Positions 2,249-54,105 are shown, counted from the first letter of the stretch. The stretch: DNA of 64,000 nt from Syntrophales bacterium (GCA_035358955.1 DAORXN010000007.1:27174-91173), one strand, 5' to 3'. Translations and numbers: made by a program. Notes: generated by a model not told the origin, from the letters alone.

Positions 2249-3136
2249 ATGGAAGTGAAGAGAATTTTGGTCGTCGGAGCGGGTCTTATGGGCAGTGGGA
2301 TTACCCAGGTGGCCGCCCAGAACGGTTACGAGGTGATTTTGAACGATGTTTCCCTGGAATTGGTGGATCGCGCCTGGGGGAATATCGAGAAAAATCTGGA
2401 TGGACAGGTAAAAAAAGAGAAGATTTCCGCCGCGGATAAAGAGGCGACGCTGGCGCGCATATCCAAATCGGCCGATCTCGCCGACGGGGAAAAGGCGGAT
2501 TTCGTCATCGAAGCTGCTTTTGAAAACTATGAGGTGAAGAAGGGGATCTTCCAAAAGTTGGATGAAATTTGTCGCCCCGAGGTGATCCTTGCTTCCAATA
2601 CCTCCTCTATTCCCATCAACTCTCTGGCTTCGGTAACGAAGAGGCCCGATCGCTTCATCGGCATGCACTTCTTTAGCCCCGTTCCCGTTATGAGGCTGGT
2701 GGAGGTGATTAGGGCACTAAAAACATCGGAGGAAACGACGAAGACCACGGAAGAAATCGCCCACCGTATGAAGAAAGAGACGGTCCGGGTGAAGGATGTG
2801 CCCGGTTTCCTGGTGAACCGGGTCAATGCGGCCTTTAGGGCTGAATGCTATCAGTGTCTCCTGGAGGGGGTTGCTTCTCTCGAAGATATTGACAAGGCCA
2901 TCAAACTCGGGTTGAATCATCCCATGGGTCCCTTTGAACTGGCCGATTTTGTCGGCCTTGAAATCGGTTTGAACGTGTTCAAGACCCTCTATGAAGGCTA
3001 TAAAGATCCCAAGTTCCGTCCTCCACTACTCCTCGAAAAGATGGTTCAGTGCGGTGACTTAGGGCGAAAAACGGGCAAAGGTTGGTACGATTATACCTCC
3101 GGGGAGAAGAAGCCGAGAACGGATATTAACCTTTAA
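2249..3136 (+). CDS. hbd: 3-hydroxybutyryl-CoA / 3-hydroxyacyl-CoA dehydrogenase (NAD-binding)
   Basis: 295 aa. Rossmann motif VVGAGLMGSGITQVAAQNGYEV, typical Hbd length and C-terminal dimerisation domain. RBS AAGGAGG upstream. Confidence 0.9.
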   Translation: MEVKRILVVGAGLMGSGITQVAAQNGYEVILNDVSLELVDRAWGNIEKNLDGQVKKEKISAADKEATLARISKSADLADGEKADFVIEAAFENYEVKKGIFQKLDEICRPEVILASNTSSIPINSLASVTKRPDRFIGMHFFSPVPVMRLVEVIRALKTSEETTKTTEEIAHRMKKETVRVKDVPGFLVNRVNAAFRAECYQCLLEGVASLEDIDKAIKLGLNHPMGPFELADFVGLEIGLNVFKTLYEGYKDPKFRPPLLLEKMVQCGDLGRKTGKGWYDYTSGEKKPRTDINL

Positions 3137-3160
3137 AAAATAAGGCGAAAGGGTGAAGAT

Positions 3161-4423
3161 ATGGAAAAGGTAGTCATATTGAGTTGTGCGCGGACGCCTA
3201 TCGGGGCATACGGAGGGTCCTTGAAGGACGTCCCCGTCTACCGGTTGGCGAGCGCGGTCCTTAAGGCAGCGGCCGAAAGGGCCAAGGTAGATCCCGCCCA
3301 GGTCGATGACGTGATCATGGGCAGTGCCTATCAGAATGGGGAGTGCGCCAACGGCGCCCGCATGGCCATCCTCGATGCCGGCTGGCCCGACACCGTGCCC
3401 GGGGTGGTGATCGACCGGCGCTGTTGCTCCGGGCTGGATGCTATATTTATGGGGGCCATGAAGATCCAGACGGGGAATGCCGATATCGTCATTGCCGGTG
3501 GTATGGACTCCATGAGTCAGGCGGAGCTCTACATTCCAGGCGATATAAAATGGGGACTGGGTGGAAAGAACCACGAAAAATACGGTTTCATGCCCCGTGG
3601 TCATGGAGCCCTCGCCATGTGGGGGATTCCTCTGTATGACCGGATTCAGAGGGCCCGGGTCATGTCGCAGCCTGTCCATCGCTACGGGGAGCTGAGCTCC
3701 ATGATGACTTGGGCCGAGACGGCGGCCAAAAGGGAAAACATCAGCCGCGAGGAGGCCGATCGGTGGGCCTTAAGGAGCCACATGCGCGCCGTAGCAGCCC
3801 AGGATGCCGGTAAATTTGCCGAGGAAATAGTCCCCATTCCTATCGGAAAGGGCAAGACAGGAGAGGATTTGGTCTTTTCTACCGATGAGGGGCCCCGAAG
3901 GGATACGACCCTCGAGAAACTGGCCCGTCTGAGACCTGTTTACCCCGATGGGGTATGCACGGCGGGAAATTCCTCTTCCGAAAATGACGGAGCCGCCGTC
4001 GTGGTTTTGGCCTCGGAGAAGAAGGCAAGAGAGCTCGGCCTCGAACCCATGGCCGTGTTCCGGGCATGTGCCGTTGCCGCCACGGATCCCACCCTTACCT
4101 ATCCGGCTGTGCCGGAAGCGGTGAGCAAGGCCCTCGCCAAAGTAGGGGCGACCATTCACGATATGGACTTAATTGAGGTGCAGGAGGCCTTTGCCGTCCA
4201 GTGCCTGGCCGATGCGAGGATGTGCGGCCTTTCCGATGAGGAGATGGAGGAAAAGGTCAACGTAAACGGGTCGGGCATCTCCCTCGGGCATCCCATCGGG
4301 GCGACGGGGACCATGAGGCTCACCACCCTCTTGTATGAGATGAAACGTCGTAACGCACGCTACGGATTGGAAACGATCTGCGGCGGTGGCGGTCAGGGTA
4401 TCTGTATGATTGTGGAAAGATAA
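3161..4423 (+). CDS. Acetyl-CoA acetyltransferase (thiolase) family protein
   Basis: 420 aa. Active-site Cys region DRRCCSGLDA, C-terminal thiolase signatures NVNGSGISLGHPIGATG and CGGGGQG. Confidence 0.9.
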   Translation: MEKVVILSCARTPIGAYGGSLKDVPVYRLASAVLKAAAERAKVDPAQVDDVIMGSAYQNGECANGARMAILDAGWPDTVPGVVIDRRCCSGLDAIFMGAMKIQTGNADIVIAGGMDSMSQAELYIPGDIKWGLGGKNHEKYGFMPRGHGALAMWGIPLYDRIQRARVMSQPVHRYGELSSMMTWAETAAKRENISREEADRWALRSHMRAVAAQDAGKFAEEIVPIPIGKGKTGEDLVFSTDEGPRRDTTLEKLARLRPVYPDGVCTAGNSSSENDGAAVVVLASEKKARELGLEPMAVFRACAVAATDPTLTYPAVPEAVSKALAKVGATIHDMDLIEVQEAFAVQCLADARMCGLSDEEMEEKVNVNGSGISLGHPIGATGTMRLTTLLYEMKRRNARYGLETICGGGGQGICMIVER

Positions 4424-4439: not shown

Positions 4440-5597
4440 ATGGATTTTGCACTGACGGATGAACAAAAGATGTTGCAGGAGATGGCGAGGGATTTCGCCG
4501 AGAACGAAATCAAACCCTATGTAGAAGAGGATGAGAAGAACCAACACTGGCGTCGAGAGATATTCGAAAAAATGGCGGAGTTGGGTTTTTTCGGCTTCTG
4601 CATTGATGAGAAGTACGGCGGAAATGGTATGGGATTTTTGGAGGGTGTACTGGTAATCGAGCAGATTGCCAAGGTGCATACCTCCTGGCGGATGGCGTTC
4701 AATATGCAGTGCTGGGGGCCGGCCCTGACCATTCAGAAGTTCGGCACGGAGGAGCAGAAGAAGCATTACATTCCCAAGTTCGTAAGCGGCGAGTACGTGG
4801 GCAGCTTTGCCATGACGGAGCCGGATGTAGGTTCCGATGTGGCGGCCATGAAGTGTCGGGCGGAAGACAAGGGGGATTACTTCCTTCTCAACGGGACCAA
4901 GATGTGGATAACGAACGGTACCGTTTGCGATCATGGTCTGCTCTACGTAAAGACGGACAAAGATGCGGGGGCACGGGGGGTTACGTGCCTCATCATGGAT
5001 TATAGCCTTCCCGGTATCACCCGTCGGAAGATTCACGATAAGGTGGGGCTCCTCGCTTCGGATACGGCGGAAATCACCTTTGAGGATGTGAAGGTACCCA
5101 AGGAGCTCGTTCTGGGCAAGGTAAACGAGGGTTTCGGGATCTGCATGACCCAGCTCAACGCCACCCGCTTAGGCTGTGCGGCAGGGGCCTTGGGTCTTTC
5201 CGGTGCCATCCTCGAAGCTTCGATCAAGTACGCCACGGAGCGTTCCCAGTTCGGCCAGCTCATAGGTCGTTACCAGCTTATCCAGCAGCAGATCGCCGAG
5301 ATGAAGATGAATCACGATGCCTTAAAGTATCTCGTCTATCAGGCTGCTTGGTTGAAGGATAGAGGCCTTCCCAATACGATGGAAACGTCCATGGCCAAGT
5401 TGTTCGGGGCCAAGGTGGTGGTCCACGATGCCAATGAGTGCATGAAACTGTACGGTTCTTTCGGTTACTCCGAGGAGTATCCCTGTGGCAGGTTCTTGAG
5501 GGATTCCAAGCAATTCGAAACGCTGGAAGGCACATCCAACATGCACACCATGATTATCGCCAACGCCGCCCTGGGATTTGCGCCCAACCGGGCATAG
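4440..5597 (+). CDS. Acyl-CoA dehydrogenase (short/medium-chain type)
   Basis: The ORF track starts at 4410. The ATG at 4440 follows AAAGGAGG and gives MDFALTDEQKMLQE, a typical ACAD N-terminus. Motifs AMTEPDVGSD, WITNG and a C-terminal catalytic-Glu region ..QFETLEGTSNMH... Confidence 0.9.
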   Translation: MDFALTDEQKMLQEMARDFAENEIKPYVEEDEKNQHWRREIFEKMAELGFFGFCIDEKYGGNGMGFLEGVLVIEQIAKVHTSWRMAFNMQCWGPALTIQKFGTEEQKKHYIPKFVSGEYVGSFAMTEPDVGSDVAAMKCRAEDKGDYFLLNGTKMWITNGTVCDHGLLYVKTDKDAGARGVTCLIMDYSLPGITRRKIHDKVGLLASDTAEITFEDVKVPKELVLGKVNEGFGICMTQLNATRLGCAAGALGLSGAILEASIKYATERSQFGQLIGRYQLIQQQIAEMKMNHDALKYLVYQAAWLKDRGLPNTMETSMAKLFGAKVVVHDANECMKLYGSFGYSEEYPCGRFLRDSKQFETLEGTSNMHTMIIANAALGFAPNRA

Positions 5598-5664: not shown

Positions 5665-6834
5665 ATGGGAAGAGTTGCCATTATCGGCGTAGGACAAAGC
5701 ACCTTCGTCCGCAATTATCCGGGCGGCATCAGGGAACTCGCCTTTGAGGGGTTCAAGGAAGCCATGGTCGATGCGGGTATCAAGTCATCGGACATAAGCG
5801 CGTCCGTGGTGTGCTCCGCACCGGAATATGACAAACAGAGATCACCTGCCGGGGTGATTGCCGAGTACCTAGGGTTGAACCCTCAGCCCACATTCTACGT
5901 GGAAAGCCTGTGTTCGTCGAGTAGCATGGGGCTTCGGGTGGCTTATGCCCTCGTTGAGTCGGGACTACACGATGTAGTGGCAGTGATAGGCTTCCAGAAG
6001 ATGTCGGAGATAACCTCCGCGGAGTCTCAGGAAAGAATGGGCCGGGGGGCAGATATTCAATGGGAAAGCCCCTTCGGCACCATGATGCCCGCCTATTATG
6101 CCATGTATGCTCGTGCCCACATGGCAAAGTACGGCACCACACCGGAAGATCTCGCCCTCATCCGGGTAAAGGCGTCAACCTACGGCCAGATCAATGAAAA
6201 AGCCGTTTATCGGAAGGCGGTGACCCTCGATATGTTCTCTGACCTCTCCAATCCCATGTCTGCTCCGGTGGCCAGTCCCTTGAGGGTAGGTGATTGCTGC
6301 GCCAACGCCGATGGTAGTTCCTGCGTGATCGTGGCCAATGAAGAGAAGGCCAAGCTCTTTTCAAAAAAACCGGTTTGGATTTTAGGCTTGGGTTCAGCGA
6401 CGGCCCCCGTCAACATGGCGGGAAGAGACCTCTTCACAGGCCTGGCCGTGGCGCGGGCGGCGGCCGAACAGGCCTACCGGATGGCGGGTATTCAGCCCAG
6501 CCAGGTTGACGTGGCGGAAGTGCACGATTGTTTCACCATTGCAGAAATGATGGCCTATGAAGATTTGGGATTCGCCCGGCCCGGCGAAGGGAAGGAGCTC
6601 ATAAGGAGTAAGGAAACATACAAGGAAGGACGCATTCCCGTCAACGTGGACGGGGGGCTACTTTCCAAGGGGCATCCCATAGGTGCCACCGGCGGTTCTC
6701 AGATCCGCACCATCGTCCTGCAGTTGAGGGGCGAGGCGGGACCCATGCAGGTGAAGGACCCCACCATCGGCCTCGTGCATAACATAGGCGGGGTGGGGCT
6801 GTACGGAAACGTGACCATCTTGGGGAGGGAATGA
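5665..6834 (+). CDS. SCP-x-type (thiolase-like) acetyl-CoA acyltransferase
   Basis: 389 aa. Thiolase fold with ESLCSSSSMG active-site Cys region and C-terminal GGLLSKGHPIGATG. Translationally coupled (ATGA overlap) to a DUF35 gene, a common pairing. Confidence 0.8.
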   Translation: MGRVAIIGVGQSTFVRNYPGGIRELAFEGFKEAMVDAGIKSSDISASVVCSAPEYDKQRSPAGVIAEYLGLNPQPTFYVESLCSSSSMGLRVAYALVESGLHDVVAVIGFQKMSEITSAESQERMGRGADIQWESPFGTMMPAYYAMYARAHMAKYGTTPEDLALIRVKASTYGQINEKAVYRKAVTLDMFSDLSNPMSAPVASPLRVGDCCANADGSSCVIVANEEKAKLFSKKPVWILGLGSATAPVNMAGRDLFTGLAVARAAAEQAYRMAGIQPSQVDVAEVHDCFTIAEMMAYEDLGFARPGEGKELIRSKETYKEGRIPVNVDGGLLSKGHPIGATGGSQIRTIVLQLRGEAGPMQVKDPTIGLVHNIGGVGLYGNVTILGRE

Positions 6835-7312: not shown

Positions 7313-8821
7313 GTGAGAACCAAAGAGGATTACATTAAAGCCTTATCGAAGATGAAGAGAAACGTGTATTTCAACGGCGAGCGGATCGATCGGACGGACG
7401 AGCTTCAGATGGACTGTATTAACACGATTGGGACTACCTATGATGAGGCGCTCAAGCCGGAGAATCAGGAGCTCATGACGGCCATTTCCCATCTCACGGG
7501 GGAGCGGATCAATCGTTTTACCCACATTCATCAGAACACGGATGATTTGCACAAGAAGCAGGACATGACGCGCATGCTTTGCCAGAAGGTGGGCAGGTGC
7601 ATCCAGCGTTGCATGGGAATCGATGCGGCCAATGCCATTTACAATGTCTCCTATGAAGCGGACAAGATGAACAATGGGGCGACGGAGTATCATGAGAATT
7701 TTAAGAAGTGGCTTATTCGGTTTCAGACGGAGGATTTGATTGGTTGTTGTGGTCAGACGGATGTGAAGGGGGATCGGATGTTGAGGCCGGCGGAGCAGCC
7801 GGATCCGAGTGTGTATGTGCGGATTAAGGAGAGGTTGAAGGATGGTATTGTGGTGGAGGGTTGTAAGCTTCACATTTCGGAGGCTTCGGTGGCGGATGAG
7901 ATACTTGTGGTGCCTACTCGGGCGTTGCGTCCTCAGGATAAGGATTATGCCGTTTCTTTTGCCATTCCCGGCGACTGGGACGGCTTGAAACAGGTGGTCA
8001 CCATTCATAGCCTCCGGAAGAGAGAGTTCTTCAAAAGGGGGTTTGCGGAAGGCTCCACGGACTCCTATTTGATTTTTGAGGATTGTTTTGTTCCTTGGGA
8101 GCGGGTGTTTTTGGCTGGGGAGTGGCAGCATGGTGGGGTTTTGGCGTTGCTCTTTGCCCTTTTCCACCGTCATTCCTACTCGGGATGCAAGCCGGCCCTG
8201 GGAGACATACTGCTCGGGACCGCGGCCCTGGCGGCGGAGGTGAACAACATCCATAAGACCTCCCACGTAAGGGAGAAGCTCGCGGAAATTATCATGGTGA
8301 CGGAGTTGGGCTATGCGGCGGGGTACACGGCCTCTTCTTTGGGCGGTCCACGGGTCTTCATGCCCGGTCGGGGTTTTATCCCCTACGGTCCCGGCTCTTA
8401 CATCCCCCATTCCATCTACTGTAACGTGGGTAGGTGCCTGACGGGTGAGGCGGTCTTCCGGGAGATGGAAATCCTCTGCGATATTGCCGGTGGGGTGGTG
8501 GCAACGTTCCCCCATGAGAAAGACTTTGTCAATCCCGAGACGGGTCCGCAGCTCCTTCGGTACACGAAGAGGAACCCCGAGATGCCGGTGGAAGACCAGG
8601 CCCAGTTCTGGCGCTACCTGGGGGATATCCTCTGCTCTGCTATGGGAGGCGTGAGCAACATTGGTTCCTACCACGGTGGTGGTTCGCCCATTATGGAGCA
8701 GATTGCCATTACGACCCAGTACGACATCGAGTCCCGGAAAAAGCTGGTCCGTTACATCGCCGGCATGAGTGGAGGAGACCGGGAAGCCCTGGCCAAAACC
8801 ATGTTGAATTCAGAAAAGTAA
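7313..8821 (+). CDS. abfD: 4-hydroxybutyryl-CoA dehydratase / vinylacetyl-CoA delta-isomerase family enzyme
   Basis: 502 aa, GTG start after AAGGAGG. It is co-linear with the Clostridium aminobutyricum AbfD sequence as I remember it: INRFTHIHQNTDDLHKK..CQKVGRCIQRCMGIDAANA and HRHSYSGCK. This conserves the Cys-x3-Cys and His/Cys [4Fe-4S] ligand positions. Confidence 0.85.
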   Translation: MRTKEDYIKALSKMKRNVYFNGERIDRTDELQMDCINTIGTTYDEALKPENQELMTAISHLTGERINRFTHIHQNTDDLHKKQDMTRMLCQKVGRCIQRCMGIDAANAIYNVSYEADKMNNGATEYHENFKKWLIRFQTEDLIGCCGQTDVKGDRMLRPAEQPDPSVYVRIKERLKDGIVVEGCKLHISEASVADEILVVPTRALRPQDKDYAVSFAIPGDWDGLKQVVTIHSLRKREFFKRGFAEGSTDSYLIFEDCFVPWERVFLAGEWQHGGVLALLFALFHRHSYSGCKPALGDILLGTAALAAEVNNIHKTSHVREKLAEIIMVTELGYAAGYTASSLGGPRVFMPGRGFIPYGPGSYIPHSIYCNVGRCLTGEAVFREMEILCDIAGGVVATFPHEKDFVNPETGPQLLRYTKRNPEMPVEDQAQFWRYLGDILCSAMGGVSNIGSYHGGGSPIMEQIAITTQYDIESRKKLVRYIAGMSGGDREALAKTMLNSEK

Positions 8822-10516: not shown

Positions 10517-11347
10517 GCGACCTTTGACGGTGATTGAAAGGCCGTCTCTTGCCGCCAAAGCATTGGGGAAGATGCAGCGGGCCAGGCGTTCGGCTTCCTT
10601 CCTGTGGGCCAGGCTGGGGTACTGAAGGGCATCGAAGTGGAAGAGGACAAGCCTCTTTACTCCCGCTTCTCTGGCAATTTTCGCGGCCGAAAGAGGATTC
10701 AGGTGGGGCCATTTATCGTTCGAAAGGTCGCCCGCATAGGCACATTCCGCACAGAGCAGATCGACATTCCGGGCCAGCGTCACGGCATTTTCGCAGTAGC
10801 CCGTATCGGGCACGTAGGCAATGCTTGCCCCGCTGTCCTCGATGCGATATCCGAGACAAGTCGTCACGTGGGTAAGCTCCCTGGCTTCCACCTGCAAGGG
10901 GTAGAGCTGATGCTCTTCTCCGGGGAGTTCCAAGATGTCCACTTCATAGGGAAGGCTCTCAAGTGGGGCCGTATAAGGACGATTCACCAGGGTATTTAGG
11001 TAATCCTTTGTGCCGGCAGGAATGCCAATCTTAAGCCCCCGAGGGAAGTTGAACTTGTTTAAGACATGCAACCCCACCGTGTGATCGAGATGATAGTGAC
11101 TCAAAAGCAGGACGGCCGGTTTGTCTTCCCCTTCTATGTATCGGTCCAGTTTGGCGAGGCCGTATCCCGCATCGAGGATCACGTGGTGGGAGTTCGTCTT
11201 TATAAGTATGGAGACGGTATTTCCCGTCTTCGTGTCGTACCAGCCGTTGGTGCCAAGAAAGATGACTTTCACTTTTTGCCCTCGCGCCCGTTTTCCCCTT
11301 ATTGTCATGACCAGTGGATAAATGCAACCATATGGCTTAAAAGGCAT
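10496..11347 (-). CDS. MBL-fold metallo-hydrolase
   Basis: 283 aa. HYHLDHTVG (HxHxDH) zinc motif. The true start may be the internal ATG at 11308 (MTIRGK..). The 3' end overlaps the convergent ligase gene by 21 nt. Confidence 0.75.
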   Translation of the reverse strand: MPFKPYGCIYPLVMTIRGKRARGQKVKVIFLGTNGWYDTKTGNTVSILIKTNSHHVILDAGYGLAKLDRYIEGEDKPAVLLLSHYHLDHTVGLHVLNKFNFPRGLKIGIPAGTKDYLNTLVNRPYTAPLESLPYEVDILELPGEEHQLYPLQVEARELTHVTTCLGYRIEDSGASIAYVPDTGYCENAVTLARNVDLLCAECAYAGDLSNDKWPHLNPLSAAKIAREAGVKRLVLFHFDALQYPSLAHRKEAERLARCIFPNALAARDGLSITVKGRLREALL

Positions 11348-44913: not shown

Positions 44914-46421
44914 TTTTGTTTACGGGGTGGAATGAGGAGTTCCACCCCCATCATTTTTACCCTCTCCCGGTCTATCCGGCCGTCTAAAGTTTTAGGCAAG
45001 GCGTCAATAAAGAGCACCCTTTGGGGTCTTTTGTAGCGGGCTATGCGACTGGCGACGTGCTCTATGAGCTTGCTTTCTTCCACTTGCCTTCCTTCTTTCA
45101 GGACACAGAGGGCGACAACTGCCTCGCCCCACTTTTCGTCCGGCACCCCGATGACACAGGCCTCTTTTACCGCCTCGTGGGAGAGAAGAACGGCCTCCAC
45201 TTCCCGGGGGTAGACGTTTTCTCCCCCCGTCTTGATGAGGTCTTTATCGGGCTTTCGCCCCCGGTAAAAGAGGGTGCCATCTTGTCCCATTTCACCCAAG
45301 TCTCCCGTATGGTGCCAGCCCCCGCGGAAGGTATAGGCCGAATCCCCCTTGAGACGCCAGTAGCCCTGGAAAACGGAAGGGGATCGCACGCATATCTCCC
45401 CCCTTTCGCCGGGGGAAAGGGGGCGATCTTCTTCGTCTCGAATGGAGATTTCTGTAAGCAGGGCAGGCTTTCCTATGGAGCCCCCTGCTTGGGTATAAAC
45501 ACCCCCGGAGATGGGCATGCATTCCGTTTGGCCGTAAATGTGGTAGAAAAGGGCTTGCGGGTGGGCGGAAAGAAACCGTTCGATATTCTCCGGACTGTCC
45601 ACCCCGCCCGCCAGGCGGAGGGAGGGGAGATGGCATCCCTGTCTTTCTGCTGCCTCGAGAATGGCGGAGAGCATGGGGGGAAACGTGATGAAGAAAGTTA
45701 ACTGTTCTTTTTCGATCATCTTCGGTACCGCTTCGGCGTCGAAGCGCCGGACGAGCATTGTGCTTCCGCCCACGAGGGTGGTAGCAAGGCTAAAGGCGAT
45801 CCCACCAATGTGGAAAAGGGGAAGCAGGCACAGATGACGGTCTTTTTCCGTAAGCGTAAGCAGATGAGCGATTTGCACGGCCGTGGAAATGAGGTTTTCC
45901 TGAGTCAGGACGGCCCCCCGGGGTTTTCCTCCCACCGCGGCCGTGTGGATGATGAGGCAGGGGGTGCCAGCAGGTGGAGGCGAGCTTGGGTCTGGGGGGA
46001 AGACTTGCGTAGAATACATCTCCTCGGTCCGGCGGACGGAGAGGCCCCTTATGGCTTTGGCTACCCTCTTTGCCTCATCGAAGTAGTGGGCCGAAGCGCA
46101 GAGCAAAGAAGGTCGCGTATCTTTCAGCAGATGGGCCTTCTCTCCCTCGCTTAAGCGCGTATTCAATGGCACCACCACAGCGCCTAACTGGGAGGCGGCA
46201 AAAAGGCCAAAAAGGATATCTAAGCCATCATCGGTTAGGAGGGCGATGCGATCGCCTGACTTAATCCCCTCCAGGGATAAGGTATGGGCCAGGGCGGAGG
46301 AGCGCGGCAACAGATTCCCGTAAGAGTATCTCTTTTCTTCCGCGATCAGGGCCTCTGCATTCCCGTAGAGGTAGGCGTTTCTCTTAAGAAGTGAGCAGAG
46401 GTTAAACGAAATCGCCATCAT
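44910..46421 (-). CDS. AMP-dependent synthetase/ligase (acyl-CoA or aryl-CoA ligase)
   Basis: 503 aa. ANL-superfamily motifs (..YGQTE.., [32 protein letters not shown]-terminal ..RYKRPQ..LPKT..GRIDR). Confidence 0.85.
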
Positions 46422-47176
46422 GCCCCCTTTTTCCCCTGGTCGGCCACGGCCTGGATGGCCGCCTTCAGCCTGTTTTCGTCGGCGAGATAGTAATGCCTGA
46501 TGGGGGTGAGGTCATCGTTCAATTCGTAAACGAGGGGAATACCCGTGGGGATATTTAGCTCCACGATCTCTTCATCGGATATACCATCTATGTACTTGAC
46601 CAGGGCCCGGAGGCTGTTGCCGTGGGCGACGATGATTACGCGCTTACCCGATCTAACCACCGGGGCAATGGCCTCATGCCAGCAGGGCATGAAACGGGCA
46701 ATGGTATCTTTCAGGGATTCCGTAAGGGGGAGGTCCTTTTCCGAGAGGCCTCGATATTTTAATTCGTGGCCGGGATAACGGGCATCTTCTTTGGAGAGGG
46801 CAGGTGGTCGTATGTCGAATCCCCGGCGCCACAGCTTTACCTGATCTTCTCCGTATTTTGCGGCCATTTCCGCCTTGTTCAACCCCTGGAGGGCACCGTA
46901 ATGCCTTTCGTTTAAGCGCCAATCTTTGACCACCGGAATCCATTCCAGGTCCATCTCTTCCAGGATGATGTTCAACGTTCTGATGGCCCGCTTCAAGACC
47001 GAAGTAAAGGCAAGGTCGAAGATGTAACCTTCTTTTTTCAAAATGCGCCCCGCCTCCCTGGCCTCGGCGATGCCCTTTTCGGACAGATCCACATCGGTCC
47101 AGCCGGTAAAACGGTTCTCCTTGTTCCATGTGCTTTCCCCATGTCTTACCAGAACGAGTTTCTTCATCGTTTTCAC
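46418..47176 (-). CDS. gpmA: 2,3-bisphosphoglycerate-dependent phosphoglycerate mutase
   Basis: 252 aa. [10 protein letters not shown] catalytic-His motif and AHGNSLRAL. Confidence 0.95.
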
Positions 47177-47366
47177 CCCATCTGTTGGTTCACGAAAGGG
47201 ATATAACGCTTGGGAGGGCCGGTCAAGGGCAAATTTGGTGTATTGACATTTTTCTCGTAGTAATTCATGCTGATAAAAAAATAAGGGTGATGAGGTTCGC
47301 CCGAACCGCCCGCCTTTCGCATGCCGGGCTGATAACCTCTACTTCGTTGAAGGAGGTTTTTAGCCG

Positions 47367-48077
47367 ATGGAATCGGAGGCGCGGTCAATGTTTCATCCCT
47401 CACCGGGAGAAATCCACTATATCTGGTGGTATATCCAAGGTAGCATCATGAACCCCGAGGTACGAAGGACCCTGCGTCGTGCCTGGGGTATGTGCGAGAG
47501 GCATGCCTGGCTTGCCCTTTCGATCGAAGCGTCTCTTCGGCACTCCTTCCTCATGGGACCGGCCATTGTCTATGCAGAACTGATGGAGAAAGCAGCCCAG
47601 ATTATGATGGAGCAAGGCCCTTTGAGTGGCTTGAGGCGTATGACAATCCTTCGTGCCCGCGGCATGTGTCTCATGTGTGAGATGGGATTGGGACCCCATT
47701 CGCGGGGGTTTGCCTCGCCGGAGGTGGTCGATCGGGCGAAGGATGTAAGGGAACTAAAGAAATTCGCCGAGATGACCCGCCCCTTCTGGGAGGAGACGGT
47801 GTGCGGTGTATGCGAAGGAACCCATAGGAAGGCAAGGTGCCGACCACATTTGGTGGAAGATCTCACCAAGGGGAGAAAGGTTGATTTGAGCGTGCAGAGG
47901 GCTCTCGTAAAGTCGATTAGCGATCGCCTCAACGTTTATTCCCACGCCTTTGTTTGGGAACACCGGGGTACCGATACGGTGGCAGACCGGGCGGCCCTGG
48001 TCAGTGCCGTGGGGTGGTGTAGCGGCTGGCGACCTCTTATCCGGCTTGTTTACGAGAGCAAGGATGAGAGGAGCTGA
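47367..48077 (+). CDS. Cys-rich hypothetical protein (two CxxC pairs plus a C-E-R-H-A-W motif)
   Basis: 236 aa. GGAGG RBS 10 nt upstream. Motifs AWGMCERHAW, GMCLMCEMG, VCGVCEG..ARC. I cannot assign a family. The 3' end overlaps the convergent gene by 28 nt. Confidence 0.5.
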   Translation: MESEARSMFHPSPGEIHYIWWYIQGSIMNPEVRRTLRRAWGMCERHAWLALSIEASLRHSFLMGPAIVYAELMEKAAQIMMEQGPLSGLRRMTILRARGMCLMCEMGLGPHSRGFASPEVVDRAKDVRELKKFAEMTRPFWEETVCGVCEGTHRKARCRPHLVEDLTKGRKVDLSVQRALVKSISDRLNVYSHAFVWEHRGTDTVADRAALVSAVGWCSGWRPLIRLVYESKDERS

Positions 48078-48898
48078 AAAGAGGCAAGGGCGAGATAGGT
48101 GTTCTCCAGGGTGGCAATGCCCGTATGGGTGGTTCGGGCGTAGCCCCCATTTATCCGGCGACAGGCAAGAAGAAAGTCTCGGATGACCTTAGGGTAGGTG
48201 GGTGGTGCCGAAAGGAGGCCCGATAGCTCCAAACCGGCATGAATATGCTCTAAATAGGAGAATTGGTTCCCCGGTAGGTTAACAAAACCGTGCCCCTCAT
48301 CTTCACAATGGCGTAAGAAGCGGTATATCTTTTGTAAGTCGACTAGTGCGCCCAGGTATTGGAGGATAAAGACGGCATCCCTCGTTTCCATGAGGGTGGA
48401 TCTTGCGTGTCCAAAGCCACCATCTCCCCTTTGATGTGAGGTCACGAACGATAGAAGGTCCCTCTTTTTCTCTGGTGGAAGATTGACCTCGAGCCACCGA
48501 TGGAGTTTTGTCAGGTGGTAGAGTTGTGCGAAGATGGAAGCACTGCCAGGTGGCAAAAGGGAGATATCGTATGTCCGGGTGTGGGCTATGAGGTAATCCC
48601 GGGGATCGAAGAGGGGAGGTGCATTTAATAGGCGAAGCCCCCCGATGGCAAAAAAGGCCTGGAAGATACTCTCATATGACCCGTCCCTTTTTTGCCTTGA
48701 CCGGAGGAAAGCGAGGGTATCTTCATCAGGAGATAAGCTACCAACCAGGTTAAGTGAGGCCAGGGCGAAGTAAGTGTCGGCCAAATTGGGCTCCTCCAGC
48801 CTATAGAAGCAATAGCCACCGGCCTGGCAACGCCTCATCTTTAGGTAATTGATCGTAGATGGTAGGTCCAGGATCCCAAAAGAAACGGAGGGCTTCAT
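48050..48898 (-). CDS. Prenyltransferase / squalene-oxidase-repeat (alpha/alpha toroid) protein
   Basis: 282 aa with repeated ..GG(Y/F)...xxxTYxALxxLxLL.. units (QAGGYCFY..TYFALASLNLV; RDGSYES; GDGGFGH..RDAVFILQYL; INGGYAR..TYLALASFQLL) typical of prenyltransferase beta-subunit-like repeats. Lies 8 nt downstream of the dynamin-like gene. Confidence 0.6.
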   Translation of the reverse strand: MKPSVSFGILDLPSTINYLKMRRCQAGGYCFYRLEEPNLADTYFALASLNLVGSLSPDEDTLAFLRSRQKRDGSYESIFQAFFAIGGLRLLNAPPLFDPRDYLIAHTRTYDISLLPPGSASIFAQLYHLTKLHRWLEVNLPPEKKRDLLSFVTSHQRGDGGFGHARSTLMETRDAVFILQYLGALVDLQKIYRFLRHCEDEGHGFVNLPGNQFSYLEHIHAGLELSGLLSAPPTYPKVIRDFLLACRRINGGYARTTHTGIATLENTYLALASFQLLSSLLS

Positions 48899-48906
48899 AA
48901 CAATAG

Positions 48907-50565
48907 TTAAGCTTTGCTTATGGCGTCCAGGGCTTCTTCCAGTTTGCTCATCATCCCGGCAATTTCTTCCGATTGCCCTTGGGTTTGGGAGAGGAGGGAT
49001 TCGATGGTCTGGATCTCCTCCCTAATGTAACGGGAAGCTTGCTTTCGCATGTCTTCTATGGTCCGGTTGATGCTCATCTCCCATTGCGCTCCCAGTCGGG
49101 AGAAGTTTACGAATACCTCTCGGTAGACGAGCCGCAAGAAGTGGCGCTCGAAAAGGGGGCGGAAGATGAACATGGGGATGATAAACCACAGAAGATCGAA
49201 GTGGAACTCGAAGACGTGCCCTACTCGGATATCGGGGCGGGCGGGTTCAATGACCTCAATTTTCCACTCCGGAGGGGTCATTTTCACCCCCAGGACGCGT
49301 TCCATATTCATGCCGATCATGGTCCTGAAGGTCTCGAGATAACGTTCGAGGGCTGCCTGAGCCTTGATCAGGGTACCGAAGAAGTGCTTTCTTTCCCGAA
49401 ATGAGATGGCATCTATCTCCGAAAACAGGTTCTGTTCCATCCATTCTTCATACTTGCGCGTAAGCTGCCAGAGATTGCCCCGCCAGGTGGACATGTCCCT
49501 TTTTAGATCTTCCCTTAATTTTTCCGCCATGGGGGCTCGGAAGGCCTCGAGGTGTTTTTCTATGTGCGTTCTCGTATGGATGGCCTGGGCCCGCGTGAGG
49601 ACAATGAGTTCTTCCTCAATCTGGGCGAGGTTGGATTTTTCCCCCAAGATCTGGGCCCGCAAGTTTTCCCTATCCGAGTCTACCTGACGGGACGTCCGTA
49701 AGGCAACCTCGAGATAATCACGGGTGGCATGGGCCAGGGATTTTATCTTGTGTTTTACAATGCTCCGAAATTCACGGTCTCTATTTGTCGTAAGGGGGAG
49801 GAGGAGTTCCATATCCAGGCGGTGCTTGAATTTTTCCATGCCTTCCCGGTTGGAATAAAGAAAGATGGGGAATTCCCGATTTAGCTCTCGATTTAAGGTT
49901 TCCTGAAAGAATTTGATGATTTCCTGCCTCTGCTCCGGCGTTATGAGATCCACTTTAGTAATCATGAGGACGATGCGAGGGGTATAGCGGAGGAGTTCCC
50001 TGATCAACTGCACATCATTTTCCGCCAAGGGGCGCTCGGCACTAACGGCGAGGATAGCCGCCCCTACTTCAGGGAGCCACTGTTCGGAGGTTTCCATGTG
50101 GTATTTGAAAACACTCCCCAGCCCCGGCGTATCTACGAAACGCAATCCTTCGTAGTCATCGAGGGAAGGAAGTTCAATGTCCACGACGGCTACATCTTTC
50201 TTGTTGGCGGGGTTCTTCGCCTCTGATGTGAACTCCTCAAGGCGCTCTAAGGGAATTTCTTCTTGGGTGCCGTCGAAGTGGGTGACGATAGCCTTTTCCC
50301 TTTCTCCGTATTTAAGCCTGGTTATGACCGTAGTAACGGGAATAACGCCGACGGGAAGGAGCCTCCGCCCGATGAGGCTATTGATAAACGAGCTCTTACC
50401 TGCCTTGAATTGTCCCAATATGGCCACGTCAATGAGGGGCGATTGCCCCACCAGACGGTCGGCCACTTGAAGTTCTCTTTTAAGAGACACCAAATTAAGG
50501 CGCTCCGTGGCCTGATGGACGATTCTCAACACACAATCGGCCGGGGTAAGGTTATCTGTTGGCAT
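48907..50565 (-). CDS. Bacterial dynamin-like GTPase
   Basis: P-loop GQFKAGKSSFINSL, G3 FVDTPGLGS, G4 TKVD, then a long helical stalk. The ATG at 50565 has AAGGAG 7 nt upstream; the track used the TTG at 50571. Confidence 0.85.
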   Translation of the reverse strand: MPTDNLTPADCVLRIVHQATERLNLVSLKRELQVADRLVGQSPLIDVAILGQFKAGKSSFINSLIGRRLLPVGVIPVTTVITRLKYGEREKAIVTHFDGTQEEIPLERLEEFTSEAKNPANKKDVAVVDIELPSLDDYEGLRFVDTPGLGSVFKYHMETSEQWLPEVGAAILAVSAERPLAENDVQLIRELLRYTPRIVLMITKVDLITPEQRQEIIKFFQETLNRELNREFPIFLYSNREGMEKFKHRLDMELLLPLTTNRDREFRSIVKHKIKSLAHATRDYLEVALRTSRQVDSDRENLRAQILGEKSNLAQIEEELIVLTRAQAIHTRTHIEKHLEAFRAPMAEKLREDLKRDMSTWRGNLWQLTRKYEEWMEQNLFSEIDAISFRERKHFFGTLIKAQAALERYLETFRTMIGMNMERVLGVKMTPPEWKIEVIEPARPDIRVGHVFEFHFDLLWFIIPMFIFRPLFERHFLRLVYREVFVNFSRLGAQWEMSINRTIEDMRKQASRYIREEIQTIESLLSQTQGQSEEIAGMMSKLEEALDAISKA

Positions 50566-50580
50566 ATCCAAGCTCCTTGC

Positions 50581-50613
50581 AAAAAAAAACTCCTGCCGAT
50601 TTTATTGCAGGAG
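50581..50613 (-). terminator. Intrinsic terminator forming the expression platform of riboswitch copy 1
   Basis: Minus strand: (A)CUCCUGC-AAUAAAAUCG-GCAGGAG(U) followed by U9 (plus-strand A run 50581-50589). The 5' arm is shared with the 3' pseudoknot strand of the aptamer. Confidence 0.75.
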
Positions 50614-50660
50614 TCATCAGCCCTCGCGGGCAATTCTTTGCGGTGAACTCCATCACCTAT
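50605..50660 (-). ncRNA. Fluoride riboswitch (crcB motif), copy 1
   Basis: Minus strand: AGGUGAUGGAGUUCACC-GCAAAGAAUU-GCCC-GCGA-GGGC-UGAUGACUCCUGC. This matches the crcB-motif core as I recall it: a GGnGAUGGnGUUCnCC hairpin, an A-rich joiner, a short GC stem, and a GGCUGAUGAnnCC tail whose CUCC pairs with the loop GGAG. Confidence 0.8.
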
Positions 50661-50667
50661 GTCATTA

Positions 50668-50698
50668 CTTATAAATCACATGACTTTGATTTTGTCAA
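50668..50698 (-). promoter_or_regulatory. Candidate sigma-70 promoter for riboswitch copy 1 and the dynamin-like operon
   Basis: Minus-strand TTGACA (50698-50693), an 18-nt spacer, then TTATAA (50674-50669). The aptamer begins about 10 nt downstream. Confidence 0.5.
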
Positions 50699-50824
50699 GT
50701 CAAAAAAAGAGACCGGGGCAAGGTATGGAACCCCCTTTTGTTAGCAGGGTCTTTTAATGCCCTCCAGAAATTTGCGCGGGCCTTAAATATTGACCCCCAA
50801 CGGGCGACATGGTAGCTTTTAAAC

Positions 50825-51460
50825 ATGTGTGGACGATTTGTGCTCCTTTCTAACCTCTCTCGCATTGAAGACCATTTCGGCCTACGTGATATACCTGCCT
50901 CTTTCAGCCGAGGGAATAACGTCTCCCCCGGCGAAAAAATCCTGGCCGTGCGTTGCCACGAAGGGAGGCGTGAAGCCGCGGTTTTCCGGTGGGGATTCGT
51001 GCCTTCCTGGATGAAGGAGATGCCGAAGGGAGGGGGATTTATAAATGCCAGGGCCGAGTCTATTGCGTTCAAGGCGACCTTTCGGGAGGCCTTTCGTAAG
51101 AGGCGATGCCTTATCGTGGCGGACGGTTTTTACGAATGGCAGAAGTTAGCAAACGGTAGCAGGAAACCCTGGTTCTTTTACCTTCCATCTCGGGTTCCTT
51201 TCGCCTTGGCCGGGCTCTTTGAAACTTGGGTTTCCCCCAGAGGTGAAGCTGTAAGTACTTGCGCTATCATCACCACCCAGGCAAACGAGCTTATTTCCCC
51301 CATCCACGAGCGCATGCCGGTCATAATTGCGCCCCAATATTACGATTTTTGGTTAGGATTGGAAAGCGGCGATTGGGAAGGGTTAGCTGACCTTCTTTGC
51401 CCCTATCCCGCAACAGAAATGATGAGCCGGGCTGAGTTTCCCGTTTTGCGCATTCTTTAA
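50825..51460 (+). CDS. SOS-response-associated peptidase (SRAP / YedK-like abasic-site processing protein)
   Basis: 211 aa. N-terminal MCGRF with catalytic Cys2, and the conserved ..RWGFVPSW.. and ..CLIVADGFYEW.. segments. Confidence 0.9.
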   Translation: MCGRFVLLSNLSRIEDHFGLRDIPASFSRGNNVSPGEKILAVRCHEGRREAAVFRWGFVPSWMKEMPKGGGFINARAESIAFKATFREAFRKRRCLIVADGFYEWQKLANGSRKPWFFYLPSRVPFALAGLFETWVSPRGEAVSTCAIITTQANELISPIHERMPVIIAPQYYDFWLGLESGDWEGLADLLCPYPATEMMSRAEFPVLRIL

Positions 51461-52659
51461 AGTTTGTTCAAAATATCCTTTTCATCTGGGGCTTGGTCAT
51501 CCAGGATAGGTTCTTCCATGAGATGGACGGGGAGAAAGCATTTATTGGCCACCAGCGTAGGAACGATGGCGCTTAGGATAACTACGGCCACCAGCAATGA
51601 ATATTGGGCCTTCGTGACGATATTTTTTTGTAGCCCGAAGAGGGCAGAAATGGTTCCGAAGGTGAGTCCCGTACTCATGAGGAGCGTATAGTACCACTTT
51701 TCTTTTCCGTTATCTCGGAATTGTTTTATGGCAGGGTAAAGGCCAAAAATCTTGAAGGAAAGCTTTCCTGCCAACAGAAGGGTAAAAGATACAACGCCAG
51801 AAATCACCGCAGGAAGATAAACGAGGGCACCGGCTCTAAGAAAGTAGAGCGGAGTGAGAAATCCAATAGTCAGGGTCCTTAATCGGCGTACGAAATGGCC
51901 GTCTGACTCCATTATGCTGCTTAAGGTCATACCCATAATGTAGGCGGGTAGCACCGGTTCACTTCCCGACCAGTAAGCAAGCGTGCCCAAGCTGAGAAGG
52001 CAGAATATTACCCACTTGGCCCGGATTGCAGCGTTACGATAGGCGAAGTGGTGGATGATAAGCTTCGTGATAGTGGGAAGGAAGAAAATCACTGCTCCGG
52101 TGACGATGATGAAGATAAGTGTTTTGATGGTGAAAGGCACAAAAATGAGCCCCAGAGCAATTACGGTGCCCAGGTCGTTGATGAAGCATGCCCCTAAGAT
52201 CCCTTTGCCGAATTCCGTTTTGTTGAAACCGTATTCTAACATAACGGTGTATACGACGGCCATAGAAGTCGTAGAGAGGGCGATGCCGCCAAGAAGACTG
52301 GCCCTTATGTCCCAACCCAATAAGTAATAAGCTATAAGGAAGCATCCCGCAAATGGTGCTGCGAAGCCAATAAATCCGACGACGGTTACTTCCTTGGCTT
52401 TTTCTTTCATCATATCGAAATTGAGTTCGGCACCAGCGAGGAAGGTAAGGAGAATGGCACCCATTCCGGTACAAAAGGTCATCCATTGGTCATTTAATGC
52501 CAGTTGATCAAAGAATCCCAACTTAACGGCAAAGAAGCTTATAGATACCCCCACGATGATTTCCGTAAGGGACACGGATATTCTAAGGCGATTAGCTATG
52601 ATAGTGGAAATTACAGCGGCCAAGAACCAAAAAGATGCTACTGTATATACATTAGCCAT
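51457..52659 (-). CDS. Cation:proton antiporter (Na+/H+ exchanger family, CPA-type)
   Basis: About 400 aa and polytopic. ..LLTFLAGAELNF.. and ..ACFINDLGTV.. resemble Na_H_exchanger family motifs. The ATG at 52659 has AAGGAG 7 nt upstream; the track start at 52704 lies inside the riboswitch. Confidence 0.8.
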   Translation of the reverse strand: MANVYTVASFWFLAAVISTIIANRLRISVSLTEIIVGVSISFFAVKLGFFDQLALNDQWMTFCTGMGAILLTFLAGAELNFDMMKEKAKEVTVVGFIGFAAPFAGCFLIAYYLLGWDIRASLLGGIALSTTSMAVVYTVMLEYGFNKTEFGKGILGACFINDLGTVIALGLIFVPFTIKTLIFIIVTGAVIFFLPTITKLIIHHFAYRNAAIRAKWVIFCLLSLGTLAYWSGSEPVLPAYIMGMTLSSIMESDGHFVRRLRTLTIGFLTPLYFLRAGALVYLPAVISGVVSFTLLLAGKLSFKIFGLYPAIKQFRDNGKEKWYYTLLMSTGLTFGTISALFGLQKNIVTKAQYSLLVAVVILSAIVPTLVANKCFLPVHLMEEPILDDQAPDEKDILNKL

Positions 52660-52698: not shown

Positions 52699-52736
52699 AG
52701 CCAAAAGGCGGTTTAAGAGGTGAACTCCATCACCTT
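52685..52736 (-). ncRNA. Fluoride riboswitch (crcB motif), copy 2
   Basis: Minus strand: AAGGUGAUGGAGUUCACC-UCUUAAACC-GCC-UUUU-GGC-UGAUGACUCCUUAUC. The 5' hairpin and 3' tail are identical to copy 1. The middle stem differs but stays complementary (GCC/GGC versus GCCC/GGGC). Confidence 0.85.
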
Positions 52737-52797: not shown

Positions 52798-54105
52798 TCA
52801 TACCTTCAGGTGCAAGAGGGGAAGCCCCAGGTGCTTGCGTTTTGTCTCCCCGTTGAGGGTCATCGCCTCACGGCAGGTGGGCTTCCCCCTTTTCCCCTTC
52901 CCCTTTTCCTCGATGGGATGGGAAGAAGCAAGATGTATGGTATGCTTACCGTATTTGCCGTTGATGAAGTCAATGGCGTGGTAAAGAAGGCGCATCCTCT
53001 CCGCCCGGAGGGGGTCTTCGAAAAGGGAGTACTGGGTTTGGTCGTCCGGCTTGAGGTGGGTAAGTACCACGCCCGTGGCCCGGTAGAAGAAATCGGGTCG
53101 GTAAAGGTGATGAAACTGCTCCCTGAGAAGAGGAGATATCTCTGGGGGATAGCTGGAAGGGCGGCTGAGTTTGGTCTCTGCAGCCTGGATCTCGAAGTTC
53201 TGCTGCTTGAGGTAGGAGATGAGACCCCCTGCCATTAGGTTGTACCGGCGGGCCTTTATACAGGCAGATTCGAGGTTCCTGAGGAGGTGGGCGAAGAGGT
53301 ACTCGGCGTCGTTCGTAGGCGGGGCGAAGGTCTTGGTTTTGCTGATGGAGGCGTAAGATTCCTTTTCGCCGTCAATTACGGGGAGTACCGCCTCCCCCCG
53401 GAGCTCCCGCCAGATTTCCACCCCCGGCTTGGTGAGGCGCTTCCGGACAATGTTTTCCGGGAGGCGGGCAAAGTCGAGGGCGGTTATGACGCCGAGTTTT
53501 CTGAGATAGGCGGCGGTAGCGGGTCCGATGCCCCATACCTTTTCTACCGCGAGGTCCCGGAGGAAATGGGCAATGGCGCGACCGGGGATGAACGTAACGC
53601 CACCCGGCTTGCGATGTTTGGAGGCAATTTTGGCGAGTACCTTGGAAAGGCTCAAGCCCACGGAAACGCTTATCCCCAACTCTTTCCCGATCTCTTCCCG
53701 AACGGCGAGGGCGATTTCCTCGTAGGACATATTTAAGACCCTACGCAGGCCCGTTATGTCCGCGAAGGCCTCGTCGATGGAGTATTCTTCCACCTGGGGG
53801 GTAAAGCGGCGAAGGATGGAGAACATGCGGCGGGAGAAGAGGGAATAAGTTTCGTAATCGGAGGGGAGAACGATGAGTTCTGGACAGCGTCGCCGCGCCT
53901 CATGGATGGGAATGCCCCGCTGTATGCCTCGGGCCTTGGCGGCATAGCTGGCACAAGCGATGATACCCCTTTCGGCGCCGGTGACGATGGGTTTCCCTCG
54001 CAGTTCTGGGTGGATGGCTTCCTCGCAGGAGGCAAAAAAGGCATCGGCGTCGAGGTGTAAAATGGCCCGCGGCCAAGATGTGAGACTGAAAATTAGGTCG
54101 CCCAT
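52798..54105 (-). CDS. Y-family (translesion) DNA polymerase, UmuC/DinB-like
   Basis: 435 aa. ILHLDADAFFASCE catalytic Asp motif, SIDEAFADITG, and a C-terminal ..INGKYGKHTIHLASS.. tail as in UmuC-like proteins. Confidence 0.9.
   Translation of the reverse strand: MGDLIFSLTSWPRAILHLDADAFFASCEEAIHPELRGKPIVTGAERGIIACASYAAKARGIQRGIPIHEARRRCPELIVLPSDYETYSLFSRRMFSILRRFTPQVEEYSIDEAFADITGLRRVLNMSYEEIALAVREEIGKELGISVSVGLSLSKVLAKIASKHRKPGGVTFIPGRAIAHFLRDLAVEKVWGIGPATAAYLRKLGVITALDFARLPENIVRKRLTKPGVEIWRELRGEAVLPVIDGEKESYASISKTKTFAPPTNDAEYLFAHLLRNLESACIKARRYNLMAGGLISYLKQQNFEIQAAETKLSRPSSYPPEISPLLREQFHHLYRPDFFYRATGVVLTHLKPDDQTQYSLFEDPLRAERMRLLYHAIDFINGKYGKHTIHLASSHPIEEKGKGKRGKPTCREAMTLNGETKRKHLGLPLLHLKV

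Follow-up and report, generated by a model that had tools for sequence, protein, structure and literature searches.

We report that a fluoride riboswitch controls, with high probability, an operon encoding a bacterial dynamin-like GTPase and a prenyltransferase-like alpha/alpha-toroid protein in a Syntrophales bacterium, and that this operon belongs to a conserved fluoride regulon; of the explanations considered this is the best overall. The operon lies on the minus strand of a 64,000-nucleotide stretch of the assembly GCA_035358955.1 (DAORXN010000007.1:27174-91173), hereafter the window, whose numbering is used for all positions unless another locus is named. Feature coordinates are collected in Table 1.

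A search with Rfam cmscan matched the segment 50666-50601 (-) to the fluoride riboswitch family RF01734 far above chance, scoring 53.9 bits where the gathering score is 34 (E = 3.7e-12, computed for the whole window and the full Rfam library) and with positions 1-64 of the 64-position model covered. The P1 hairpin reads GGUG-AUGGAGUU-CACC (50657-50642) and is followed by an A-rich joiner, P2 is capped by a GNRA loop, and the aptamer tail GCUGAUGACUCC has its 3' end at 50610. The terminator that follows is a 9-bp hairpin in which GACUCCUGC (50615-50607) pairs with GCAGGAGUU (50596-50588), ahead of a run of nine U (50589-50581). ACUCC is the 3' strand of the pseudoknot and equally part of the terminator 5' arm, and this shared strand gives the leader the classical ligand-ON layout. 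ViennaRNA, which models neither pseudoknot nor ligand, keeps the ACUCCUGC/GCAGGAGU terminator hairpin in the ligand-free minimum-energy fold of the leader, and assigns -14.7 kcal/mol to the isolated terminator element. Judged by its sequence, the segment 50666-50581 (-) is a genuine fluoride riboswitch and, by design, a transcriptional ON switch.

Much of this arrangement had been proposed in a first-pass annotation made from the sequence alone. The leader that it quoted agrees base for base with the minus strand at 50480-50900, the covariance-model score that it asked for lies well above the gathering score, and the mutual exclusivity of pseudoknot and terminator that it described follows from the common ACUCC strand. 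It had also named the two downstream products correctly: Pfam recognizes Dynamin_N in the first protein (88.6 bits against a cut-off of 27, E = 6e-25) and Prenyltrans in the second (55.7 bits against 26.5), and the 8-nt gap between the two genes separates the dynamin stop codon (48909-48907) from the toroid ATG (48898). Its promoter, TTGACA-N18-TTATAA, fared less well. The string is present, but TTATAA (50674-50669) agrees with TATAAT at only two of six positions, and TATAAG (50673-50668), at a spacer of 19 nt, makes a better -10 element. With either version of this promoter-like site, transcription would plausibly begin shortly before the aptamer.

We infer the switching steps from the established mechanism of this riboswitch class. 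Without fluoride, ACUCC would be taken up in the terminator hairpin and transcription would end at the U-run, before the operon. Once a fluoride-magnesium complex is bound, ACUCC would be engaged by GGAGU of the P1 loop to make the pseudoknot, formation of the terminator would be prevented, and the polymerase would read through into the dynamin and toroid genes. The crcB ON switch of Bacillus cereus, another RF01734 member, has the same aptamer core of two stems and a pseudoknot and likewise a terminator that competes with the 3' strand of the pseudoknot. What differs from the known RF01734 targets is the controlled product, here a dynamin-like GTPase with a prenyltransferase-like toroid.

The aptamer is retained upstream of orthologous dynamin genes, as the first-pass annotation had suggested might be looked for in related genomes. 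A scan of genome contigs with the single protein returned only one close relative, a Syntrophales metagenome-assembled genome (MAG; locus L001, 87% protein identity), in which an aptamer of 55.9 bits lies 50 nt ahead of the dynamin gene. A metagenome scan with a 20-sequence alignment, ranked by protein similarity alone, added 80 further loci. Aptamer cores were detected with a strict regular expression and checked with Rfam; a five-sequence MAFFT seed misaligned P2. Among the 74 loci with enough upstream sequence to test, 67 have an aptamer on the same strand as the dynamin gene and 38-124 nt (median 59) ahead of its estimated start, over a range of 49-87% protein identity. Rfam confirmed all upstream aptamers called by the expression in the sample tested, and placed an aptamer at the head of a toroid-then-dynamin operon in L021. 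The expression missed L078, where Rfam detects an aptamer before a dynamin homologue of 41% identity, and four of its calls stay below the Rfam gathering score (L002 32-71 (-), L003 6985-7028 (+), L003 6355-6408 (-) and L027 2677-2741 (-)). Clustering of the 62 full-length positive proteins gives 53 groups at 90% identity and 19 at 70%, and the most distant pairs are 49% identical, so the positives are not one genome sampled repeatedly.

The aptamers themselves have diverged while keeping their pairing. Across 39 orthologous aptamers 98.7% of the expected pairs are standard, whereas controls with slid positions pair at 35-61%. Compensatory changes occur in P1 (U-A, C-G, G-C), in the pseudoknot (U-A, C-G) and in P2, and the observed covariation score was reached by none of 500 shuffles. 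The expression platforms vary by locus. A run of at least five U follows the aptamer in 44 of 65 leaders, most of which show a hairpin with a (G/A)ACUCCU 5' arm; in most of the remaining leaders the ACUCC strand pairs with AGGAG just ahead of the start codon. Whether by terminator or by Shine-Dalgarno sequestration, the ACUCC strand is nearly always the one used. Genomic comparison shows that this dynamin subfamily is conserved in the predicted fluoride regulon of Syntrophales-like bacteria and largely dedicated to it.

The same link recurs with dynamins of other descent. A Desulfomonile MAG (L086) carries an aptamer of 53.6 bits before a different dynamin of 608 amino acids, which is about 30% identical to ours in the G domain only and is followed first by a homologue of the 236-amino-acid Cys-rich protein encoded beside our operon (see below) and then by genes for an enolase, a Na+/H+ antiporter and USP and MFS proteins. 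A Methanoregula MAG (L082, with an archaeal-type CCA-adding enzyme) holds three aptamers within 6 kb. One precedes a toroid homologue, a HEAT-repeat (HEAT_2) gene and a 214-amino-acid protein; the other two form a divergent pair, facing on one side an enolase, a Dynamin_N protein of 356 amino acids and a 339-amino-acid protein, and on the other a Dynamin_N protein of 595 amino acids. The toroid homologue has an aptamer of its own both in L082 and in L085, and these are the only two loci with a HEAT_2 gene after it. Within 8 kb of L084, a 4.77-Mb contig, four aptamers stand over a gene of the 236-amino-acid family, an antiporter operon and a dynamin; the antiporter operon (Na_H_Exchanger-Usp-Prenyltrans-TauE) sits behind two aptamers about 130 nt apart, at 3100-3162 and 3295-3355 (+). 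By their sequences, unrelated dynamin lineages of a second bacterial order and of an archaeon have converged on fluoride-riboswitch control.

The archaeal case has a cultured counterpart. The 2010 seed alignment of the crcB motif contains two divergent motifs from Methanoregula boonei 6A8, at NC_009712.1 914764-915010 (supplement to PMC2864571). The open reading frame after one of them has the enolase signature PSGASTG, mirroring L082. These instances were thus already in the 2010 alignment, yet they are not discussed there, and the searchable literature makes no mention of archaeal dynamin-like proteins under riboswitch control. M. boonei 6A8 is an isolate and would allow the dynamin link to be tested in culture.

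The first protein of the operon has the layout of a single-chain dynamin. A GTPase domain (about residues 45-240) is followed by helical bundles at 243-425 and 465-551, and its motifs are G1 GQFKAGKSS (51-59), G3 DTPG (145-148) and G4 TKVD (203-206), of which GxxxxGKS, DTPG and TKxD are invariant across 55 homologues. A profile of these 55 sequences searched against the PDB finds Campylobacter Cj-DLP2 nearest (5owv_C, 1.5e-18), together with IniA and Nostoc BDLP. The AlphaFold 2 model, with a predicted local distance difference test score (pLDDT) of 81, is made up of the G domain, a set of long helical bundles and a short tip that is hydrophobic, and Foldseek ranks IniA (E = 2e-17) and BDLP (E = 1e-16) at the top; template-modelling (TM) scores to the best structures reach only about 0.4, as expected because conformations in this family are hinge-dependent. 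Between the last two long helices lies the conserved tip, at about residues 452-470 (FEFHFDLLWFIIPMFIF), in which W460, F461, P464 and M465 are invariant. IniA (6j72/6j73) and Nostoc BDLP (2j68/2j69), the best matches by profile and fold combined, share the arrangement of GTPase, helical neck and trunk, and putative hydrophobic tip; they are 15-19% identical to our protein, with 606 (IniA) and 695 (BDLP) deposited residues against 552. On sequence and model, the protein is a bona fide single-chain bacterial dynamin-like protein of the BDLP/IniA type, for which GTP-dependent self-assembly and membrane remodelling are predicted. Most bacterial dynamin-like genes are paired (PMC6104087), whereas this operon has no second dynamin gene. 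The family is large, with 823 representatives at E <= 1e-30 when one is taken per 50%-identity cluster.

Several other identities were considered for this protein and set aside. Some automatic names from the JGI would make it a ribosome-biogenesis GTPase of the Era/EngA/EngB type, but the NCBIfam scores fall far below the cut-offs and the fold is that of BDLP. A role in anti-phage defense finds only a weak LeoA-like match for the GTPase in PADLOC and nothing for its partners, and the neighbors are fluoride-regulon genes. CaaX-type prenylation is excluded by the C-terminus, ...AISKA, which has no Cys.

The toroid gene lacks its own Shine-Dalgarno sequence, and its translation is probably coupled to that of the dynamin gene. 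Its AlphaFold 2 model (pLDDT 94) superimposes on the beta subunits of RabGGTase, GGTase-III and FTase with TM scores of about 0.73-0.75, and shares with them the toroid fold of Prenyltrans repeats. The differences lie in its length, shorter at 282 amino acids, in a zinc-binding Cys that is not conserved and in an operon without an alpha subunit. We take the zinc site of RabGGTase beta to consist of D238, C240 and H290. In a profile alignment of moderate reliability with rat RabGGTase beta, the PDVC segment falls over LxET-a/R, with the Cys position not occupied by Cys; aligned by hand, D238 stands opposite E171 of the toroid and H290 opposite E217. No alpha-subunit gene was found in the dynamin operon; the gene after the toroid converges on it. 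These two findings led us to reject a true protein prenyltransferase and to treat the toroid as a prenyltransferase-like protein that probably acts as an accessory binding module. Its gene and that of the 236-amino-acid protein on the plus strand converge, their 3' ends overlapping by 28 nt at 48050-48077, so that the transcripts induced by fluoride from the two genes would have complementary ends; we saw no terminator within this overlap.

What might a dynamin do for a cell exposed to fluoride? The best-studied bacterial relatives of this protein protect membranes in stressed cells. IniA is induced by drugs and carries out membrane fission (PMC6715688), and its inducers are cell-wall drugs where the sensor here is a fluoride RNA. 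DynA of Bacillus subtilis, for which a role in protecting membrane integrity from antibiotics and phage has been proposed (PMC8844932), is our model for the function; it is a fusion of two dynamin units, compared with the single unit here, and the only part of our protein that the NCBIfam model for DynA recognizes is the P-loop region, at 39 bits against a cut-off of 1600. Fluoride enters cells as hydrogen fluoride (HF), acidifies the cytoplasm and drains the proton-motive force (PMC11139923), and it can lyse bacteria (PMC12700350). Stress-protective relatives on the one hand, and HF entry, acidification, loss of proton-motive force and lysis on the other, make membrane maintenance our leading reading, which we hold tentatively: the dynamin may maintain or reseal the cytoplasmic membrane under fluoride or HF stress, as DynA and IniA, both induced by stress, may do against other insults. 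Such upkeep would help to preserve the proton gradient needed for fluoride export and pH homeostasis. The first-pass annotation had named membrane repair or remodelling as an example of such a role; still inferred by analogy, it is now better founded. To our knowledge, DynA itself has no fluoride link. A dedicated stress role is favored because expression is off without fluoride by design, because nearly the whole clade is riboswitch-controlled and because such control has arisen convergently in dynamin lineages that are unrelated.

A number of observations weigh against this picture. The membrane-maintenance role is argued by analogy, and both the RNA switch and the proteins are known here from sequence and models. 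The hydrophobic tip, the putative membrane-binding element, is modelled at low confidence (pLDDT about 55-69). Neither -10 option was called by a consensus promoter scan, and the promoter is a weak match. A Pfam scan of the riboswitch-controlled genes gave no CRCB or Voltage_CLC domain, and CrcB was not found in the window by a tblastn search of low sensitivity that used an Escherichia coli CrcB sequence as query. Finally, no aptamer was detected even at E <= 0.01 in L079, L080, L091 and L092 (28-38% identity) or in L061 and L065 (about 50%); these homologues indicate that the link belongs to one clade and not to the whole dynamin family. In L089, a 35% homologue, the dynamin stands towards the end of an operon headed by a sub-threshold aptamer (615-681; 32 bits against 34), in the order His_Phos_1 (803-1492), DUF6062, Acid_phosphat_B, OTCase, dynamin and Na_H.

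The main rival to membrane maintenance, which we regard as the less probable of the two, is compensation: metal fluoride would trap the GTPase and the cell would make more of it, as is thought for the fluoride-inhibited enzymes enolase and pyrophosphatase. Fluoride with Mg2+ or trace Al3+ forms MgF3- and AlF4-, mimics of the gamma-phosphate that lock G-domain dimers of the dynamin type in the transition state, and a dynamin G domain with GDP-AlF4- is available (2x2e). G domains of this superfamily crystallize with GDP-AlF4-, and our structure matches include the transition-like mitofusin 5gom and Fzo1 9kff; all catalytic motifs are intact and invariant in the 55 sequences. Enolase, the textbook fluoride-inhibited enzyme, is moreover the commonest neighbor, adjoining the dynamin in 29 of 81 loci and sharing one riboswitch-controlled operon with it in L082 and L086, and the logic of making more enzyme has been described for enolase (PMC11139923). 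However, the strong terminator of this ON switch implies that the operon is little expressed until fluoride is present, and the dynamin is accordingly not a housekeeping function being topped up; with 67 of 74 clade members under riboswitch control it looks like a dedicated stress gene, and no constitutive paralogue was seen in the window. The same chemistry could also be turned to use, although we consider this improbable: the dynamin would be a dedicated fluoride-defense effector common to bacteria and archaea, in which MgF3- or AlF4- locks GDP-bound G-domain dimers and so directly triggers a stable, membrane-protecting coat, fluoride thus acting on the protein itself as well as on its transcription, with the toroid and the 236-amino-acid protein as new accessory factors.

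Dynamin and toroid might instead remodel the envelope or its lipids, by way of isoprenoid lipids, lower permeability to HF, vesicles or the expulsion of metal-fluoride precipitates. The toroid fold is one that, in the modelled likeness to the beta subunits of RabGGTase and FTase, would bind isoprenoid diphosphates; the toroid recurs beside the dynamin (downstream in 8 loci, upstream in 2) and has its own aptamer in Methanoregula L082 and also in L085, and archaeal membranes are built of isoprenoid lipids. We nevertheless judge this unlikely, given the missing zinc-binding Cys and alpha subunit, the lack of linked lipid-synthesis genes, and the presence of the toroid near the dynamin in only about 18 of 81 loci, so that the dynamin does not need it. 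It is far less probable still that the riboswitch is real and the dynamin a mere passenger, present in the island or co-transcribed by accident. The island is indeed modular, the antiporter cassette with its aptamer being absent from L001, and the unrelated SRAP and DinB genes are interleaved with the fluoride units. Yet in 67 of 74 loci, among proteins as little as 49% identical in pairs, the aptamer immediately precedes the dynamin start, with platforms that differ by locus and aptamers that show compensatory changes, and unrelated dynamin lineages in another bacterial order and an archaeon are arranged alike; chance hitch-hiking would not outlast such divergence.

The classes named as controlled by fluoride riboswitches are exporters, antiporters, enolase, pyrophosphatase, HAD, formate hydrogen lyase, MutS and chorismate mutase (PMC2864571; PMC11139923), and the list in a 2024 review on fluoride resistance has all of these except MutS and contains no GTPase (PMC11139923). 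Dynamin is never mentioned in the 2010 discovery paper and its supplements (PMC2864571), and we found no link between a fluoride riboswitch and a dynamin or GTPase in the searchable literature, a search outside which the supplementary gene lists of Baker et al. 2012 fall. All of this agrees with the earlier statement that the gene class is not a described fluoride target; the sensor appears canonical and the effector class undescribed.

Prokaryotic dynamin-like proteins are widespread, and for most of them we know of no physiological trigger. In this case an RNA sensor whose ligand specificity is known identifies the condition that brings about synthesis of an entire dynamin clade, across dozens of lineages at 49-87% identity and, beyond them, in another bacterial order and a methanogen. 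This makes testable both the purpose of prokaryotic dynamins and the responses of cells to fluoride beyond export. The fluoride regulon would gain three protein families, namely BDLP, the prenyltransferase-beta-like toroid and the Cys-rich 236-amino-acid protein, and metal-fluoride trapping of dynamin-type GTPases is flagged as a possible in vivo target of fluoride toxicity. These families could also matter for the engineering of fluoride-tolerant anaerobes that degrade organofluorine compounds.

Table 1. Features of the fluoride island in the window, with the aptamers of the Methanoregula locus L082 in that locus's own numbering
Feature	Position	Strand	Basis or detail
Promoter-like site	50698-50668	-	direct read; TTGACA 50698-50693
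Fluoride riboswitch aptamer, RF01734	50666-50601	-	Rfam cmscan; P1/P2/pseudoknot covariation in 39 orthologous aptamers
P1	GGUG 50657-50654 with CACC 50645-50642	-	direct read
P2	GCCC 50631-50628, GNRA loop GCGA, GGGC 50623-50620	-	direct read
Pseudoknot	GGAGU(U) 50651-50646 with (G)ACUCC 50615-50610	-	
Expression platform, intrinsic terminator	50615-50581	-	minimum-energy fold, U-run
Shine-Dalgarno AAGGAG	50578-50573	-	7 nt ahead of ATG 50565-50563
Bacterial dynamin-like protein, 552 amino acids	50565-48907	-	Dynamin_N, PDB profile search, Foldseek
Prenyltransferase-beta-like alpha/alpha-toroid, 282 amino acids	48898-48050	-	five Prenyltrans repeats
Second fluoride riboswitch	52743-52681	-	Rfam RF01734, 53.3 bits
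CPA2 Na+/H+ antiporter, downstream of second switch	51457-52659	-	Pfam Na_H_Exchanger 103.9 bits
Third fluoride riboswitch	47277-47348	+	Rfam RF01734, 45.9 bits
Cys-rich protein, 236 amino acids, downstream of third switch	47367-48077	+	cytosolic
L082 aptamer	4933-4996	+	
L082 aptamer	10528-10589	-	
L082 aptamer	10682-10747	+	

The Rfam scan of the whole window found three fluoride-switched units in 5.5 kb, with two kinds of platform; the two further riboswitches had been missed by the first-pass annotation. In the second switch an 11-bp hairpin, GAUGACUCCUU with AAGGAGUCAUC, masks the Shine-Dalgarno sequence and is not a terminator. The antiporter that it precedes has its true start at the ATG at 52659, the TTG at 52704 listed as the start of the open reading frame falling within the aptamer. 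This cassette of aptamer and antiporter is the one missing from L001, in which a mere 144 nt or so separate DinB from SRAP. The third switch forms its pseudoknot between GAGGU and ACCUC, and its platform is a hairpin of AACCUC with GAGGUU over the Shine-Dalgarno sequence AGGAGG.

The Cys-rich protein behind the third switch has no Pfam, NCBIfam or PADLOC match. DUF6062 gave a single weak pairwise match to it (E = 3e-4 over 53 residues), with no match in Pfam. Its family counts at least 208 members, in Syntrophales, Desulfomonile, Handelsmanbacteria and Anaerolineae. Of five other loci examined, four (L001, L084, L086 and L087) have an aptamer ahead of the family gene or its operon, and in L088 no aptamer is closer than about 2.3 kb upstream, so that control there is uncertain. 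The protein looks like a second member of the fluoride regulon without a described fluoride link.

The flanks of the island hold ilvB, ilvC, ilvD and genes for an acyl-CoA ligase, a histidine phosphatase, DinB, SRAP and RadA-like and NadB-like proteins. The histidine phosphatase gene (His_Phos_1, phosphoglycerate-mutase family; 46418-47176 (-)) borders the island, and such a gene is found near the dynamin gene in 6 loci. SRAP, an abasic-site sensor (50825-51460 (+)), and DinB, a Y-family polymerase (52798-54105 (-)), lie interleaved with the fluoride units; both are syntenic in L001, and neither has an aptamer ahead of it. The crcB motif was first linked to the DNA-repair gene mutS, and the presence of DNA-damage genes among fluoride units may be more than coincidence.

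The most frequent neighbors at the 81 dynamin loci are enolase (29), Na+/H+ antiporter (20), toroid (18), HIT, USP and MFS (12 each) and MutS-like and HAD-like genes (7 each). Enolase is adjacent and divergent upstream of the dynamin gene in 12 loci and downstream of it in 15 (for example L010, 2323-3606 (-)). The toroid lies directly downstream in L001, L002, L007, L030, L031, L050, L059 and L072, and upstream in L021 and L068. Several of these neighbor classes had already been tied to fluoride riboswitches (PMC2864571; PMC11139923). L078 is the only dynamin locus with a recognizable crcB (Fluc) gene, at 7947-8291 (+), the sole tblastn match of the E. coli CrcB query. Its order is aptamer (3885-3980), dynamin (41% identity), aptamer (5737-5831 (+)), Na+/H+ antiporter and crcB, and both of its aptamers carry long insertions (about 95 nt).

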